From assembly GCA_903937405.1 (NCBI GenBank), contig CAIZZE010000039.1, positions 3,185-67,184 on the forward strand: DNA of 64,000 nt, read 5' to 3'. The translations under genes were made by a program, and so were the position numbers. Shown here in pieces: positions 3,217 through 42,471 of the stretch. Source of the DNA: an uncultured Alphaproteobacteria bacterium (lineage in GTDB: Bacteria > Pseudomonadota > Alphaproteobacteria > Rickettsiales > UBA1997). The notes under the pieces were generated by a model. That model was not told the DNA's origin, did no database searches, and saw only the letters and a list, made by a program, of their open reading frames with translations. The stretch's first letter is position 1. Every line of letters starts with the position of its first letter.

Positions 3217-3294
3217 TGGTCGGGGCGGAGAGATTCGAACTCCCGACCCCCTGGTCCCAAACCAGGTGCGCTAGCCAGACTGCGCTACGCCCCG
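3217..3294 (-). tRNA. tRNA-Pro (anticodon UGG), CCA encoded
   Basis: The reverse complement reads CGGGGCGTAGCGCAGTCTGGCTAGCGCACCTGGTTTGGGACCAGGGGGTCGGGAGTTCGAATCTCTCCGCCCCGACCA. I folded it by hand into a cloverleaf with a 7-bp acceptor, D arm GCGC/GCGC, anticodon stem CCTGG/CCAGG with loop TTTGGGA, and T arm GGGAG-TTCGAAT-CTCTC. Confidence 0.93.
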
Positions 3295-3703: not shown

Positions 3704-3714
3704 ATTCAGCAAAA

Positions 3715-4593
3715 ATGAAAGGAATTATACTCGCCGGCGGCAGCGGAACAAGACTTGCGCCTTTAACAAACATAATCAGCAAACAATTATTGCCGGTTTA
3801 TGACAAGCCAATGATTTGCTATCCGCTTGCCACTTTGATGAATCTGAATATTAAAGAAATTTTAATCATTTCAACTCCGCAAGACACGCCAAATATTGAA
3901 AAATTTTTAGGCGATGGATCGGATTATGGATTAAATCTTTCTTACGCCGCGCAAGATGAACCCAAAGGAATTGCCGAAGCATTTTTGATTGGTGAAAAAT
4001 TTATCCAAAATGAAAATGTCTGCCTGATTTTAGGAGATAATATTTTTTACGGCGCGGAAATAAATCACGAAAATTTGGAAGATAAAATTGCCCAAGTTGA
4101 ATCTGGCAAAATCGGCGGATTAGTTTTTGCTTATCACATTTCCGACCCTGAAAGATATGGCGTTGTGGAGTTTGATGAAAATGACAGAGTCCTTTCAATT
4201 GAAGAAAAACCAAAACAACCGAAATCAAATTTCGCTGTTACGGGACTTTATATTTATAATTGTGATGTGGTTAAGATTACCAAAAATCTAAAACCGTCTG
4301 ATCGCGGCGAGCTAGAAATCACCGATGTAAATATTGCTTATCTAAAAGAGAAAAAACTCGGAATCATTAAGTTAAGACGTGGATTTGCCTGGCTCGATGC
4401 TGGAACACCAGATTCACTTTTGGAATCCTCGCAATTCATTCATACAATTGAAAAAAGACAGGGATTGAAAATTGCTTGTATTGAAGAAATGGCTTTTAAC
4501 AAAGGTTTTATCGATGCCAAGCAATTTGATGCCTTAAGAGAAAAATACAAAAAAGGTTCGCCTTATAGAAATTACTTAGAACATCTTATTTAA
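3715..4593 (+). CDS. rfbA: Glucose-1-phosphate thymidylyltransferase
   Basis: 292 aa. MKGIILAGGSGTRLAPLT...SKQLLPVYDKPMI and the RmlA-typical remainder. Confidence 0.93.
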   Translation: MKGIILAGGSGTRLAPLTNIISKQLLPVYDKPMICYPLATLMNLNIKEILIISTPQDTPNIEKFLGDGSDYGLNLSYAAQDEPKGIAEAFLIGEKFIQNENVCLILGDNIFYGAEINHENLEDKIAQVESGKIGGLVFAYHISDPERYGVVEFDENDRVLSIEEKPKQPKSNFAVTGLYIYNCDVVKITKNLKPSDRGELEITDVNIAYLKEKKLGIIKLRRGFAWLDAGTPDSLLESSQFIHTIEKRQGLKIACIEEMAFNKGFIDAKQFDALREKYKKGSPYRNYLEHLI

Positions 4594-37190: not shown

Positions 37191-37352
37191 AGAAACTGTT
37201 TAGCATATTTTTTAACCACAGATTTTGGCATATTTTTAGCGCTTTTTTGACAAAATTTTGACGAATATCGGAATATATTTGGAGAAATTTTGTCAAAAAA
37301 TAAGCAAAAATAGGGCGAAATATGTGGTTAAAAAATATGCTAAACAGTTTCT
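37191..37352. repeat. ~162-bp nested palindrome in the divergent GT2/sodB intergenic region
   Basis: The outer 30-bp arms are perfect: AGAAACTGTTTAGCATATTTTTTAACCACA (37191-37220) and its reverse complement (37323-37352). The inner 16-bp arms TTTTTTGACAAAATTT (37243-37258) / AAATTTTGTCAAAAAA (37285-37300) are also perfect. The segments between them are imperfectly symmetric. Confidence 0.85.
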
Positions 37353-37377
37353 CAGCAACAAAACTAGGTTGTCACCC

Positions 37378-38100
37378 ATGCAAATGTCAAAAAGAAAATT
37401 CATTAAAAATGTTTGTCTTTCTTCGGCCTTTCTTCTTGGCGCTTGTAAAATCAAGAGCTTAAGTGGCATTACTAATTCTAAGTCAAAATCTTTTGGAGGA
37501 TCCATGCACAAAATCGAATTACCTAAATTGCCTTATGATAAAGGCGCTCTAGCTCCTTACATCTCTGAAAATACCATGAATTTTCACTATGGAAAACATC
37601 ATCAGGCTTATGTTACTAACTTAAATAACTTAATTGCTGGCACTGATTTAGATGGAAAATCTTTAGAAGAAATCATCAAAATTTCTCATGCCGACAAAGC
37701 CAAAGCCGGAATTTTCAACAATTCAGCGCAAGTTTGGAATCACACTTTTTACTGGCATTCAATGAAACCAAATGGCGGTGGCAAACCATCTGCTGATGTT
37801 TTGAAAAAAATTGAAGCCGATTTTGGTTCTTACGAAAATTTTGTAACTGAATTTAAAAATGCTGGTGCAACTCAATTTGGTTCAGGATGGGCTTGGTTAG
37901 TTTTGGAAAATGGCAAATTGAAAGTTACTAAAACTGGCAATGCTGAAACTCCACTCACAACTTCTGCAATTCCATTAATGACGATGGACGTTTGGGAACA
38001 TGCTTATTATTTGGATTACCAAAATGCTCGCCCAACCTACATCGACACTTTCTTAAACCACCTAGTAAACTGGGATTTCGTTTCTGAAAATTTAAAATAG
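37378..38100 (+). CDS. sodB: Fe/Mn superoxide dismutase with a possible N-terminal lipoprotein or Tat-like signal extension
   Basis: The catalytic core starts at MHKIELPKLPYDKGALAPYIS..HYGKHHQAYV (ATG 37504) and ends ..DVWEHAYYLDYQN. An in-frame upstream ATG at 37378 adds MQMSKRKFIKNVCLSSAFLLGAC|KIKS. The true start is unresolved (37378 or 37504). Confidence 0.85.
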   Translation: MQMSKRKFIKNVCLSSAFLLGACKIKSLSGITNSKSKSFGGSMHKIELPKLPYDKGALAPYISENTMNFHYGKHHQAYVTNLNNLIAGTDLDGKSLEEIIKISHADKAKAGIFNNSAQVWNHTFYWHSMKPNGGGKPSADVLKKIEADFGSYENFVTEFKNAGATQFGSGWAWLVLENGKLKVTKTGNAETPLTTSAIPLMTMDVWEHAYYLDYQNARPTYIDTFLNHLVNWDFVSENLK

Positions 38101-38804: not shown

Positions 38805-39764
38805 ATGACGCTTTTAAAAAAAATATCCGAAAACAAAAACGCCACCAAGCCTGTAATTTACGGCATTTCCAGCCTTGAACTCACAGATGAAGAAAGGAAG
38901 TTTTTTTCTAAAAACGGTGCACTTGGTTTCATTTTATTCGCCCGCAATATTTCCAATAAAACTCAATTAAAAAAATTAACCGATTCTCTGCGCGAATTAA
39001 TGCAAGGCGAAATTCTGGTTTTAGTTGATCAAGAAGGCGGTCGCGTCGCGCGCATGAAAGAACCAGATTGGAAAAAATATCCCGCCGGAAAATATTTCTC
39101 TGATCTTTACGAAGAAAATCCATTACAAGCCGAAGAAGAATTATATGAAAATTTTCAAGAAATCGGCCGCAATTTAATTGACGCCGGAATCAATGTCAAT
39201 TGTGCTCCGGTGCTTGATATTTTAACTGACAAAACTCACCAAGTTATTGGCGATCGCGCTTATGGAAGAAATGCCAAGCAAGTTGCAGATTTGGGTCGCA
39301 AAGTTTGCGAAGGTTTGCTTTCGCAAGGTGTTTATCCTGTAATTAAACACATTCCCGGTCACGGCCGCGGCACTTCTGACAGTCATTTAGAATTACCAAT
39401 CGTTGATGCAACTTTGGAAGAATTAAGAAAAACTGACTTTCTAACTTTCCAAAAATTACGCGACCAAAAATTTGCGATGACGGCACATATTTTATTTTCA
39501 GCAATCGATAAAGTTAATTGCGCCACAACTTCTAAAACCGCGATTGATTTAGTCAGAAATGAAATTGGCTTCAAAAATATTTTAATGAGCGACGACGTTT
39601 CGATGAAAGCGCTTAAAGGCAATTTCCACGATAAATCAAAAGCCATTTTAAATGCCGGCTGCGATTTGGTTTTACACTGCAATGGTAAAATGGATGAAAT
39701 GCTGGAAATTAATTCGGCGCTGCCAAATTTAACTGATGAGTTTTGGGGAAGATTTACTCATTAA
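38805..39764 (+). CDS. nagZ: Beta-N-acetylhexosaminidase (GH3, NagZ)
   Basis: 319 aa. LVDQEGGRVARM and KHIPGHGRGTSDSHLELP motifs. Confidence 0.85.
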   Translation: MTLLKKISENKNATKPVIYGISSLELTDEERKFFSKNGALGFILFARNISNKTQLKKLTDSLRELMQGEILVLVDQEGGRVARMKEPDWKKYPAGKYFSDLYEENPLQAEEELYENFQEIGRNLIDAGINVNCAPVLDILTDKTHQVIGDRAYGRNAKQVADLGRKVCEGLLSQGVYPVIKHIPGHGRGTSDSHLELPIVDATLEELRKTDFLTFQKLRDQKFAMTAHILFSAIDKVNCATTSKTAIDLVRNEIGFKNILMSDDVSMKALKGNFHDKSKAILNAGCDLVLHCNGKMDEMLEINSALPNLTDEFWGRFTH

Positions 39765-39789
39765 ACCTAAAAATAATAAATTTTAAAAA

Positions 39790-41193
39790 ATGAAATTTAC
39801 TTTTAATAATGTCGGCTTGATTGATAAAACGAAGTTAGATCTAGCTGATTTAACTATTATTTGCGGAGAGAATAACACAGGCAAAACTTATGCCACTTAT
39901 TCGATTTATGGATTTTACTATAACTGGAAATCTCATTTAAGAGAAGAATTGCAGCTTATTTCAAAAGAAGCTTTGAAAGAATCAAACGGCGTTCAAATTG
40001 ATCTCAATAAAATTTTTTTAGGCAAAATTAATGAATTACTAAAAAAAGCTTCGGAAAAATACTCAAAAAACTTAAATCAAATTTTTTCTTCCGGCGAAGA
40101 ATTTTTTAAAGACTCAATTTTTCTAGCTGAATTAGGAAAAGAGCCTTTAGAGCTAAACTTTACGAAGGATTATCTTGAAGAGATTTCGGATGCTAAGGGA
40201 AAGCCACTTGCCACAATTGAGAAAAAAGAAAATTCTTCTATTTTAGAAATTCTGATAACCAGCAATGAGCAGCAGGATTTAGATTTAACATCACGTATCG
40301 CCTATGCTACAGCGCAAATTATTTTCAAACCCTACTTTCCTGACATCTTCATTTCCAGCACCGAAAGAACTGGTGCAGCAATTTTTTCGAAGGATCTTAA
40401 TTTTAATGAAGCCAGAGCTTTAGAGGTTATAGCTCAACAAAAAGATAAAAAGACAAAAACTAAAAATGATATTCCTTTTGGAATGAAGATGTTTAGAGGA
40501 ATTTTTGAAAACAGATACCCCCAACCAGTCGAAAATAACGTAGAATTTATTCGCCACATCGAAGATCTTGAAAAAGATTCAAGCCAAGTTTCAAAAGATT
40601 GCCCAGAAATAATTTCAGCTTTTGAGGAGATGGTTGGAGGTAAATATAGACTAGTAAAAAACCTTGGAATTCGATTCTTTCCAAAAAGATCTCTTATCAA
40701 AAAAGGCTTCTCTATGCTTGAATCTTCAAGTGCAATAAGAGCTCTACTTGATATTAATTTTTACTTGAAATGTGCAGCTGAAAAAGGCGATATACTAGTT
40801 ATCGACGAACCAGAACTTAACTTACATCCAACTAATCAACGCGCATTTGCCCGTTTAATTGCAAGACTTGTTAATTATGGAATTAAAGTTTTTGTAACCA
40901 CTCATAGCGATTACATTATTCAAGAGCTAAATACTCTAATAATGTTAAATGCTAGAACTGATCACGCCAAAAAAATTCAGCTAAAGTACAACTATAAAGA
41001 CGAAGAGTTGTTAAGTTGCGATAAAATAAAACTCTTCACTACTACTCCAGATAAGAAAACAAAAACTTATAAACTAGTAGAATCTTCGGTAGATAGAGAA
41101 AAGGGGATTGAAGCTAAAACTTTCGACAAAAATATAGACGAACTAAATATAATTCAGCAGTCTATTTACTACGGAGTAAAACAACACCAATGA
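39790..41193 (+). CDS. ABC-type (AAA_15/AAA_21-like) ATPase, first gene of a candidate two-gene defence module
   Basis: 467 aa. Walker A GENNTGKT (K32), a long helical insertion, signature-like ESSSAIRAL, Walker B ILVIDEPELNLHP, and H-loop VTTHS. No TOPRIM, HNH or transmembrane part is visible. Confidence 0.7.
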   Translation: MKFTFNNVGLIDKTKLDLADLTIICGENNTGKTYATYSIYGFYYNWKSHLREELQLISKEALKESNGVQIDLNKIFLGKINELLKKASEKYSKNLNQIFSSGEEFFKDSIFLAELGKEPLELNFTKDYLEEISDAKGKPLATIEKKENSSILEILITSNEQQDLDLTSRIAYATAQIIFKPYFPDIFISSTERTGAAIFSKDLNFNEARALEVIAQQKDKKTKTKNDIPFGMKMFRGIFENRYPQPVENNVEFIRHIEDLEKDSSQVSKDCPEIISAFEEMVGGKYRLVKNLGIRFFPKRSLIKKGFSMLESSSAIRALLDINFYLKCAAEKGDILVIDEPELNLHPTNQRAFARLIARLVNYGIKVFVTTHSDYIIQELNTLIMLNARTDHAKKIQLKYNYKDEELLSCDKIKLFTTTPDKKTKTYKLVESSVDREKGIEAKTFDKNIDELNIIQQSIYYGVKQHQ

Positions 41194-41849
41194 ACGAAAA
41201 TCTAGAAACAATCAAAAACGCACTACAAATTGATGAAAAAAGTTTCGCTTTAGGTAGCCAGCACAGTCACTTTTTAGTACAAGAAAGAAAAAATTTTAAT
41301 CAAATAGAGCCAAAAAACTGTCTAAAGAAAGTAACTATAGAAGTTCAGAAAGGATTTAGGGATTTCTTTGCATTTAGTCCAGACGACTTTCTTAATGGCA
41401 AAAATTTAAAAAAGAAAAAATATCCACTTCATCCTCTTTTATCAAATACTGAAGACTACCAAAAATGTTGTGACAAAGTAATAATCTTCATGGGAAAAAA
41501 TCAGTTAGAAATGGTTTTTATTGAGATGAAGAACTCCCTTGGTGGTGGAAATTTAGGAAAAGCAAGAATTCAACTCTGTAACACAAAGAATTTCTTTAAA
41601 CACCTAGTAAATCTTATAATTGAACATAATGAAATCACAGGCACAAAAACTCCAACTCTAAAAAAACTGTTTGATAACAATAAAGTTAGATTTCATTCAT
41701 TAATTTTTACGGCTGAAAGCGAAAAACCTAAATATTTAGCAAAAAAACCTTGTCGAGGAAACTCAAAACAGGAAATATCCATTCCAGAAAATATAGAATA
41801 TAACCTTACAAATTCTAGCACCTTACATCTAACAGATTTAATAAAATAA
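41190..41849 (+). CDS. Small protein with a PD-(D/E)xK nuclease signature, second gene of the candidate module
   Basis: 219 aa. The start ATG overlaps the ATPase stop (ATGA at 41190-41193). The motif CC-D95-KVIIFMGKNQLEMVFI-E112-M-K114-NS fits D-hhhh...hhh-E-h-K. The following helix carries GKARIQL. No other family is recognisable. Confidence 0.45.
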   Translation: MNENLETIKNALQIDEKSFALGSQHSHFLVQERKNFNQIEPKNCLKKVTIEVQKGFRDFFAFSPDDFLNGKNLKKKKYPLHPLLSNTEDYQKCCDKVIIFMGKNQLEMVFIEMKNSLGGGNLGKARIQLCNTKNFFKHLVNLIIEHNEITGTKTPTLKKLFDNNKVRFHSLIFTAESEKPKYLAKKPCRGNSKQEISIPENIEYNLTNSSTLHLTDLIK

Positions 41850-41859
41850 ACTAACTTTT

Positions 41860-42471
41860 ATGGTCAATTTCCTACATAAAAACGATCTTCCTTCCGATAT
41901 TAATTTTAAAGGTTCAATCGCCATTGATTCCGAAACAATGGGTTTGAACATAATTCGTGATCGTCTTTGCGTGGTGCAAATTTCTGATGGCAAAGGCGAT
42001 GCGCATTTGGTACAATTTGAACAAGGAAAATATGATGCGCCAAACTTGTGCAAAATTTTGGCTGATGAAAAAATCCAAAAAATCTTTCACTTTGCGCGCT
42101 TTGATTTAGCGGCTTTGCAGCATTATTTAAAAGTTGAAATCAAAAATATTTACTGCACAAAAATTGCTTCAAAATTAGTTCGTACATACACCGATGCTCA
42201 CGGATTAAAATCACTTTGCGACGAACTTTTGGGAATTGAACTTTCCAAAAAACAACAAACTTCTGATTGGGGAAATGCTGAAATTACTGAGAAACAATTA
42301 GAATATGCCGCTTCCGATGTTTTGCATTTGCATAAATTGAAAGTAAAATTGGATGAAATGTTAAAAAGAGAAAATCGCCTAGAAATTTTTGAAGCTTGCG
42401 TAAAATTTTTACCAACCCGCGCCAAGCTTGATGTTCAAGGATTTGGTTCGGCTGATATTTTTTCGCATTAG
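41860..42471 (+). CDS. rnd: Ribonuclease D-like 3'-5' exonuclease (short DEDDy form)
   Basis: 203 aa. ..IAIDSETMGL.., ..KIFHFARFDL.., ..YAASDVLHL.. (Exo I-III motifs). Confidence 0.8.
   Translation: MVNFLHKNDLPSDINFKGSIAIDSETMGLNIIRDRLCVVQISDGKGDAHLVQFEQGKYDAPNLCKILADEKIQKIFHFARFDLAALQHYLKVEIKNIYCTKIASKLVRTYTDAHGLKSLCDELLGIELSKKQQTSDWGNAEITEKQLEYAASDVLHLHKLKVKLDEMLKRENRLEIFEACVKFLPTRAKLDVQGFGSADIFSH

Follow-up and report, generated by a model that had tools for sequence, protein, structure and literature searches.

A divergent PD-T4-4-family gene pair, predicted to act in phage defence, occupies a nagZ–rnd insertion hotspot in an uncultured alphaproteobacterium

Introduction

The two-gene system PD-T4-4 was recovered from Escherichia coli ECOR58 by functional selection against phage T4; its founding locus, which resides in an integrative and conjugative element (ICE)-like element, consists of two coding sequences (CDSs) over 1,973 nt, for proteins RCO57999.1 and RCO57988.1, that were annotated as "ATPase, nuclease" (Vassallo et al, 2022; PMC9519451). 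The nuclease assignment drew on an HHpred comparison in which residues 77–114 of PD-T4-4B matched PD-(D/E)xK families at 30–76% probability (PMC9519451). PD-T4-4 has already been described as an ATPase acting with a PD-(D/E)xK nuclease (PMC10952713; bioRxiv 10.1101/2025.07.10.664194; PMC12137116), and has been listed both with systems that combine PD-(D/E)xK and P-loop domains and with the ABC-ATPase defences. Here we analyze a pair of adjacent genes, hereafter gene A and gene B, found between a nagZ-like and an rnd-like gene in a 64,000-nt stretch of DNA (the window, whose numbering is used throughout) from an uncultured, AT-rich alphaproteobacterium. Both encoded proteins are members of the PD-T4-4 family; the module is real, and the system to which it belongs is already named and has been validated in E. 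coli.

The experimental background drawn on here comes from two bacteria. The E. coli system protects against T4 (PMC9519451; bioRxiv 10.1101/2025.07.10.664194), a protection re-confirmed for EcPD-T4-4 by Ragucci et al, who also detected higher-order complexes by mass photometry. WonAB, a system of the Vibrio cholerae WASA-1 prophage (proteins AWB73975.1 and AWB73976.1; PMC12137116), is explicitly related to PD-T4-4 by its authors, who nevertheless separate the two by the Insert 1/2 regions, the C-terminal extension and, in some cases, the nuclease (PMC12137116). Defence by WonAB depends on both of its genes, on the motifs of the ATPase (K34, R182, E300, H333) and on the lysine of the nuclease (K71), and an ATPase-dead WonA leads to loss of WonB (PMC12137116); protection takes the form of lysis-independent abortive infection that acts after the onset of phage DNA replication and without bulk DNA degradation. 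Together with the operons termed "OLD-ABC ATPase + novel REase" (restriction endonuclease), WonAB shares with the window pair the succession of an OLD-like ABC ATPase and a small PD-(D/E)xK-variant nuclease, which in WonAB are predicted to associate as a complex that has the nuclease seated on the ATPase's C-terminal extensions. This likeness is drawn from the published description only, since PADLOC 2.0.0 predates WonAB.

Results

Both proteins of the pair match PD-T4-4 profiles

Gene A (39790–41193; 467 aa) and gene B (41190–41849; 219 aa) lie on the same (+) strand and together span 2,060 nt, the stop codon of the first being joined to the start codon of the second in an ATGA overlap (41190–41193) that is plain from the sequence itself. 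In gene order (A then B), in adjacency and in size the pair matches the two CDSs of the founding E. coli system, and the resemblance extends to the family at large, in which an AAA_15/AAA_21 ABC-type ATPase of ~460 aa is followed on the same strand, in tight juxtaposition, by a protein of ~190–220 aa that has no Pfam domain and carries a D...(D/E)xK motif. In addition to this published description, the comparison uses the family profiles of PADLOC. Gene A aligns over its full length with the PD-T4-4_A profile PDLC04033 (E = 1.9e-156; residues 1–464 on profile positions 1–459 of 460) and also matches PDLC04032 (E = 3.2e-66); gene B matches the PD-T4-4_B profile PDLC04034 (E = 5.5e-12; residues 21–148 on profile positions 20–131 of 190) and PDLC04035 (E = 2.7e-4).

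Because both proteins match these profiles, we conclude that the pair is PD-T4-4 and no new kind of system. The original prediction, made from the sequence of the window, had presented an "undescribed" module that maps to no named system; this claim is refuted, and it fails by the prediction's own yardstick, namely placement of the pair in a system that already bears a name. More than 4,400 homologues of gene A are found at E ≤ 1e-10 and 28 contigs of several metagenomes encode exactly this gene B protein, which establishes the two as real genes and not chance open reading frames (ORFs).

The nearest competing assignment is the PADLOC candidate system PDC-M47, whose ATPase profile (PDC-M47A) is matched by gene A at E = 2e-133, whose architecture is shared, and whose PDC-M47B proteins carry the same C-x-x-x-D...ExK...Q-L-x-G pattern. 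However, gene B has no PDC-M47B match at E ≤ 1, and PDC-M47B partners accompany relatives of gene A of 38–43% identity; we rejected PDC-M47 membership on account of the former. The PADLOC profiles of AriA, PtuA, GajA, Old and AbiLi also match gene A, at E-values from 1e-25 to 1e-9. Septu (PtuAB) and the retron-associated PtuAB share the logic of an ABC ATPase with a nuclease partner, but that partner is the HNH nuclease PtuB, and the PtuA profiles score 2e-14 or weaker on gene A as opposed to 1.9e-156 for PD-T4-4_A. PARIS (AriAB), Gabija (GajA) and OLD share the AAA_15/AAA_21 ABC ATPase sensor module (AriA 1e-25; GajA and Old ~1e-11 to 1e-13), whereas their effector is a TOPRIM/DUF4435 domain, fused or separate, that neither window protein matches. 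Gene B gives no HNH or TOPRIM/DUF4435 match in Pfam or PADLOC, in agreement with what had been read from its sequence; Septu, PARIS, Gabija/OLD, AbiL and Lamassu were all rejected, their partner domains being absent and their profiles trailing PD-T4-4_A by over 100 orders of magnitude.

Gene A encodes a defence-sensor type of ABC ATPase

Pfam (AAA_15, E = 6.9e-24; AAA_21, E = 1.4e-14), PADLOC and Foldseek agree that gene A encodes an ABC-type (OLD/SMC-like) ATPase of the AAA_15/AAA_21 kind used as a defence sensor, as originally proposed; its role here is presumed to be that of sensor/regulator. The AlphaFold model of the protein has a predicted local distance difference test (pLDDT) score of 82, and Foldseek returns 186 matches to it at E ≤ 1e-3, led by PtuA chains from Septu and retron systems (the closest solved structures) and by Rad50 and SMC heads, at E ~1e-9; at the level of this model, the ABC fold is confirmed.

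We scored motif conservation over 21 homologues of 44–84% identity. The Walker A/P-loop G26-E-N-N-T-G-K32-T33 (39865–39888) is invariant except at E27, which is retained in at least 90%. At the Q-loop position, S190-T-E-R193-T-G195 (40357–40374), an Arg replaces the Gln, and S190, E192, R193, T194 and G195 are invariant; we infer R193 to be the counterpart of WonA R182, whose mutation to alanine (R182A) abolishes defence (PMC12137116). The ABC signature-like element E311-S-S-S-A-I-R317-A-L-L-D321 (40720–40752) is invariant at E311, S313, S314, R317, A318, L319, L320 and D321. The Walker B and D-loop region, I335 to P347 (ILVIDEPELNLHP; 40792–40830), is invariant from D339 through E340, E342 and H346 to P347, as are T370, H372 and S373 of the H-loop T370-T-H372-S373 (40897–40908). 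All of these elements bar the Q-loop had been picked out beforehand, as GENNTGKT (with K32), ESSSAIRAL (311–319), ILVIDEPELNLHP (335–347) and TTHS (370–373), and each is both in place and conserved. An insertion of ~270 aa between Walker A and signature had likewise been noted and is present; its description as purely helical does not hold, since the model places four beta strands within this stretch, at residues 110–156.

Gene B is a divergent PD-T4-4_B protein with a putative PD-(D/E)xK core

Judged by its sequence, gene B is a fast-evolving protein that represents a divergent subfamily of PD-T4-4_B. A word-indexed search returned 3 related proteins and an exhaustive HMMER scan of 1.84 billion representative proteins returned 15 at E ≤ 1e-3; all 15, once aligned, match PDLC04034 (best E = 2.9e-69), and a search with the gene B profile pulled in the typical 190-aa members of the family. 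In contrast to those typical members, the window protein is longer (219 versus ~190 aa), only 21–32% identical to them, and divergent in its C-terminal third. Neither Pfam nor NCBIfam gives a significant match to gene B, and a PDB sequence search with its profile returned nothing even at E ≤ 10; a "Thioredoxin_17" match (E = 0.0017) was rejected, as it fell below the cut-off and contained no significant stretch.

What is retained across the family is a small set of polar residues. In alignments of 15 (A3) and of 28 (A4) sequences, E32, C94, D95, K114 and Q128 are invariant and position 112 is always E or D, so that D95, E112-M-K114 and Q128, each already picked out from the sequence, are invariant apart from the E/D exchange at 112. 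This set follows the E...D...(D/E)xK...Q arrangement of restriction-endonuclease-fold enzymes, in which E32 (41283–41285) would be a candidate metal-binding or structural acidic residue, D95 (41472–41474) the "D" of the PD motif and E112-M-K114 (41523–41531) the (D/E)xK motif. In the AlphaFold2 model built from the 28-sequence alignment (pLDDT 76; predicted template modelling score, pTM, 0.78), D95 follows the invariant C94 at the start of a strand (96–102), E112-M-K114 ends the next strand (105–114), Q128 (41571–41573) sits in the long helix that comes after it (121–150), and a further strand spans 166–174. The conserved residues are thereby predicted to fall on a strand–strand–helix–strand core compatible with the PD-(D/E)xK fold; the proposed fold is drawn from the conservation of E32, D95, E112, K114 and Q128 together with this topology, and gene B is presumed to be the nuclease effector of the pair.

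The two genes are paired across the family and reside in defence loci

To be testable for pairing, a metagenome locus had to carry a gene A relative with enough downstream sequence, and 71 loci qualified. A B-type gene lies directly downstream in every one (71/71): a PD-T4-4_B-type gene in 59 and, in the other 12, an ORF of 169–193 aa located 6–15 nt downstream and bearing the C-x-x-x-D...ExK...Q pattern. Eight of these 12 ORFs were scanned, and all eight belong to the sister subtype PDC-M47B, most of them cross-matching PD-T4-4_B weakly. Given that the 71 loci are accounted for by a PD-T4-4_B gene (59) or a PDC-M47B-like partner (12), the pairing of A with B is effectively obligate, and the juxtaposition is tight throughout the family, ranging from overlap to a 15-nt gap.

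Named genomes carry the same arrangement, in that relatives of gene A at 45–47% identity are each followed by a PD-T4-4_B gene of 185–200 aa (hidden Markov model E-values of 1e-74 to 1e-80). In Haemophilus haemolyticus (L089:5528-17223; loci are denoted by L numbers) the PD-T4-4 pair, an assignment confirmed by PADLOC, is located between cas3 and cas5 (cas5d) of a type I-C CRISPR-Cas locus. The homologous pair of Neisseria and of Verminephrobacter sits in a restriction–modification locus, beside N6_N4 methylase and ResIII modules, and in a P2-like Vibrio phage a pair of another subtype (PDLC04032/04035) is found between the CI repressor and the integrase, in a defence slot of the prophage. Homologues of the pair thus reside in defence loci and, as the original prediction had suggested checking, strictly co-occur. 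The Haemophilus locus holds a second ATPase gene (539 aa; AAA_15/AAA_21/SMC_N) between cas4 and cas1, so that a single CRISPR-Cas operon encloses two ABC-ATPase genes.

The cassette nearest to that of the window (L004; gene A 84% and gene B 56% identical) occurs in an unrelated genomic context. There, a 48-aa GmrSD_N fragment precedes the cassette (1467–1613) and a gene with a Bro-N domain follows it (3712–4107), which suggests a degraded defence or mobile-element neighborhood.

The nagZ–rnd junction is an insertion hotspot

In the window, the pair is part of a tightly packed, co-directional run of genes, hisB–nagZ–A–B–rnd. On its left, the nagZ-like gene (38805–39764, +; 319 aa, glycoside hydrolase family 3; Pfam Glyco_hydro_3, E = 6.3e-52) is separated from gene A by a 25-nt spacer (39765–39789, +); on its right, a 10-nt spacer (41850–41859, +) marks the cassette edge and leads into the rnd-like gene (41860–42471, +; 203 aa, a short RNase D-like 3'-5' exonuclease; Pfam DNA_pol_A_exo1, E = 2.1e-41). 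The strands, overlap and both spacings had been read correctly at the outset, and Pfam confirms the identities given to the two flanking genes, which stand outside the defence system; the nagZ-like gene is the left edge of an insertion hotspot. A promoter scan around the pair did no better than on shuffled controls, and a terminator scan found none convincing flanking it.

With the rnd protein as an anchor we collected 80 related loci among GTDB species representatives, all of which were mapped for hisB, nagZ, A, B, rnd and cydB. These relatives are uncultured metagenome-assembled genomes (MAGs) loosely labelled Rickettsiales/Alphaproteobacteria, which gives no support to the "host-associated" lifestyle of the original prediction. 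Some of them (L009, L012, L020, L028, L031 and others) bear implausible labels ("Rickettsia typhi", "Rhizobium sp. Q54", "uncultured Rhizobium sp.") although they clearly belong to a single clade of AT-rich, uncultured alphaproteobacteria, and NCBI taxonomy labels for this clade are unreliable.

The cassette is absent from most close relatives, in which nagZ abuts rnd; at least 17 relatives have such an empty site, with the two genes either abutting or no more than 171 nt apart. The closest relatives, L009 and L011 (rnd 97–98% identical), are among these, with a nagZ–rnd gap of 2–6 nt. Elsewhere the same junction is occupied by other alleles: in L005–L008 gene A is 73% identical to that of the window and gene B 48%, over the N-terminal 137 aa only, and in L015 gene A is 47% identical and accompanied by a complete 207-aa gene B. 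Presence and absence are polymorphic inside one species-level lineage, in that the flanks of occupied L005 and empty L009 share 96.5% and 98.7% nucleotide identity; the window flanks are ~93% identical to both. That the pair has no link to its housekeeping neighbours, as first surmised, is thus substantiated by empty sites and sharp borders that mark it as an insertion.

These borders can be placed closely by comparison of the window with L005. Nucleotide identity is 89–99% in the flanks but 37–87% between 39790 and ~41860, and is back at ~93% from 41860/41900; no difference is seen in the last nagZ codons or in the 25-nt spacer. As the window shares this spacer with L005, whose allele is a different one, and as the spacer is missing from the empty sites of L009 and L011, it is part of the inserted cassette. 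Sharp borders of this kind point to allelic exchange of the cassette, or to its much faster evolution. In all seven loci examined the GC content of the cassette is below that of the host (window, 31.3% versus 36–37%). The cassette borders were searched for an integrase, a tRNA, att-like direct repeats and inverted repeats, and none was found; the most economical explanation would be that the cassette is transferred by homologous recombination, by way of the conserved genes on either side.

In some relatives gene B has decayed at this site. In L031 gene A is intact (476 aa, 61% identical) and gene B has been reduced to an 83-aa remnant (L031:5741-5992) that keeps the first 6 and last ~77 residues, an in-frame deletion having removed the whole catalytic core (~aa 7–120, relative to the gene B protein P0125). 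In L006 (11419–12100), an L005-like locus, gene B is frameshifted in a poly-A run, giving a 125-aa ORF and then a gap before rnd; this split could reflect pseudogenization or an assembly error.

Other changes are visible around the junction. In L013 (5856–6000), L014 (975–1144) and L017 (2387–2538) the nagZ–rnd spacer consists of 146–171 nt of GC-rich sequence with long palindromes (for example CCCCTCCTTATCCAAGGAGGGG...CCCCTCCTTGGATAAGGAGGGG in L013) that look like REP/MITE-like elements, meaning that the junction accepts other small insertions too. Upstream of rnd, L010 (1–6000; rnd 97% identical) has an inverted polA, GST, APH and a 181-aa ORF in place of sodB–hisB–nagZ, making the 5' border of rnd a rearrangement breakpoint as well. 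In L011 (6610–7640) the sequence to the right of rnd is only ~62% identical to the cydB region of the window and no cydB homologue was detected there; the right flank is accordingly not conserved in L011.

Two further features of the window were recorded in passing. An Fe/Mn superoxide dismutase ORF (37258–38100) has an ambiguous start: a TTG start gives 280 aa here, while the calls in related contigs have 240, 259 or 273 aa, and the longer forms gain a hydrophobic, lipoprotein-like N-terminus (…SSAFLLGAC…), hinting at an enzyme that may be exported or membrane-anchored. The sole RNA gene detected in the 64 kb is a tRNA-Pro(TGG) (3217–3294, minus strand), Rfam at gathering thresholds giving no further matches across the whole window.

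Discussion

The pair is, with high probability, a functional anti-phage module of the PD-T4-4 family that was acquired horizontally into an intergenic hotspot, between nagZ and rnd, in an AT-rich and uncultured alphaproteobacterium. Observed at and around the locus are family membership, intact ATPase and D/ExK/Q motifs, strict pairing, homologues in defence loci and polymorphism of the site; phage protection, complex formation and abortive infection are carried over by analogy from E. coli PD-T4-4 and V. cholerae WonAB and should be read as predictions. The window pair departs from E. coli PD-T4-4 in host (an uncultured AT-rich alphaproteobacterium, not a gamma- or betaproteobacterium) and in setting (between core housekeeping genes, not in an ICE-like element or defence island).

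A mechanism modelled on these relatives can be proposed. Gene A would dimerize head-to-head via composite ABC ATP sites, and the dimer would hold an inactive gene B on the C-terminal extension of gene A. A phage-derived cue might then alter the ATP-dependent conformation or ATPase cycle of gene A, a change that would license the putative metal-dependent site of gene B (E32/D95/E112/K114) to cut nucleic acid. Phage development would be halted abortively, with sacrifice of the infected cell.

Several observations weigh against this account. The PD-T4-4_B match spans only ~58% of the protein, and the C-terminal third aligns poorly, to the extent that not even the L005 allele from this site can be aligned with it. 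Scanned with Pfam, 28 members of the gene B family gave noise only, with no nuclease family, and in Foldseek searches of the PDB and BFVD the modelled gene B protein had no match at E ≤ 1e-3 (best E = 0.16 and 0.018; TM < 0.3). The weak structural matches are rich in REase-fold proteins (Nt.BspD6I, BsmI, Bse634I, FokI, McrC, the R2 endonuclease domain, DdmD, XisH and herpesvirus UL24), an enrichment that is suggestive only; the founding PD-T4-4 nuclease call, made by HHpred, was similarly weak and motif-level. The original description of gene B as a "textbook" PD-(D/E)xK protein is consequently right as to the conserved D...(D/E)xK...Q residues and overstated as to "textbook", for there is no Pfam nuclease and no significant structure match. 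Purified EcPD-T4-4 cleaved none of 11 DNA substrates, whether double- or single-stranded (Ragucci et al); with nuclease activity thus absent in vitro, the term "nuclease effector" is unproven for the whole family, and the same result raises the prospect that the substrate of gene B may be RNA or a special DNA structure. Finally, the immediate neighborhood is one of housekeeping genes with no defence island, and no integrase or flanking repeat was found at the locus.

Among other explanations, it is highly improbable that the pair is a selfish, toxin–antitoxin-like addiction module, in which gene A restrains a toxic gene B and the pair persists by post-segregational killing. The two genes are tightly coupled and mobile, AAA_21 is connected by its Pfam name with the AbiEii/type IV toxin–antitoxin family, and the decay of gene B in L031 (core deleted, gene A intact) and L006 fits a protein B that is the dangerous partner; the ATPase of WonAB moreover controls the stability of its nuclease. 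Yet relatives give experimental phage protection, loss of WonA ATPase activity results in loss of WonB and not in toxicity, and no toxicity was reported for nuclease–NTPase operons at the induction level used. Toxin–antitoxin-like behavior and abortive-infection defence are, in any case, not mutually exclusive.

Very unlikely, too, is a decaying, non-functional defence relic. Such an end state has its precedents at this very site (the 83-aa remnant of L031 and the frameshift of L006), and the C-terminus of the window gene B is atypical; set against this, both ORFs of the window are intact, their catalytic and nucleotide-binding residues are all preserved and the overlap is retained, and 28 contigs from several samples encode an identical gene B protein.

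We attach next to no credence to a genuinely undescribed ATPase–nuclease system that stands apart from all named ones. Gene B is very divergent, as witnessed by its 15 representatives in 1.84 billion proteins, its partial profile match and its unalignable C-terminal third. However, the full-length PD-T4-4_A match of gene A is accompanied in gene B by a PD-T4-4_B match with all family-invariant residues, and the intermediates that lead to canonical B proteins are continuous (L004 at 56%, L005 at 48% and P0125–P0136 at 21–32% identity), the canonical members reaching 5.8e-93 against PDLC04034.

A housekeeping function co-opted into the nagZ–rnd operon, for instance in repairing nucleic acids or in processing RNA alongside the RNase D-like exonuclease, is scarcely tenable: the co-directional, packed gene run with no recognizable promoter or terminator of its own and the conservation of the exact protein on 28 contigs would suit it, whereas most close relatives lack the pair, among them one genome from the species-level lineage of an occupied one, its alleles are far more divergent than the flanks and show a GC dip, and the closest cassette lies in an unrelated context, with a GmrSD fragment and a Bro-N gene.

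As a discovery, the PD-T4-4 assignment carries little weight, given that the system already has a name, a validation in E. coli and an entry in PADLOC. Its modest value is in extending PD-T4-4 to a lineage of uncultured, AT-rich alphaproteobacteria whose genomic neighborhoods are small and dense in housekeeping genes, in adding a very divergent gene B variant to the family, and in revealing a clean core-gene hotspot, nagZ–rnd, whose empty, occupied, allelically replaced and decayed states would be useful for the study of defence-gene turnover. The polymorphism of this hotspot and the unusually divergent gene B are the sole features that merit follow-up.

A bolder extension of these two features, which we consider rather unlikely, is that the extended C-terminal third of gene B and its few relatives, which cannot be aligned with other members of the family, reflects another target specificity, or another mode of regulation, within PD-T4-4, and that nagZ–rnd is an arena of rapid, phage-driven cassette turnover. 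With at least four deeply divergent alleles at the junction, an empty state within one species-level lineage and decayed copies of gene B, the site could be such an arena in this uncultured freshwater alphaproteobacterium; were that so, comparison of its alleles might show which part of the proteins senses phage.

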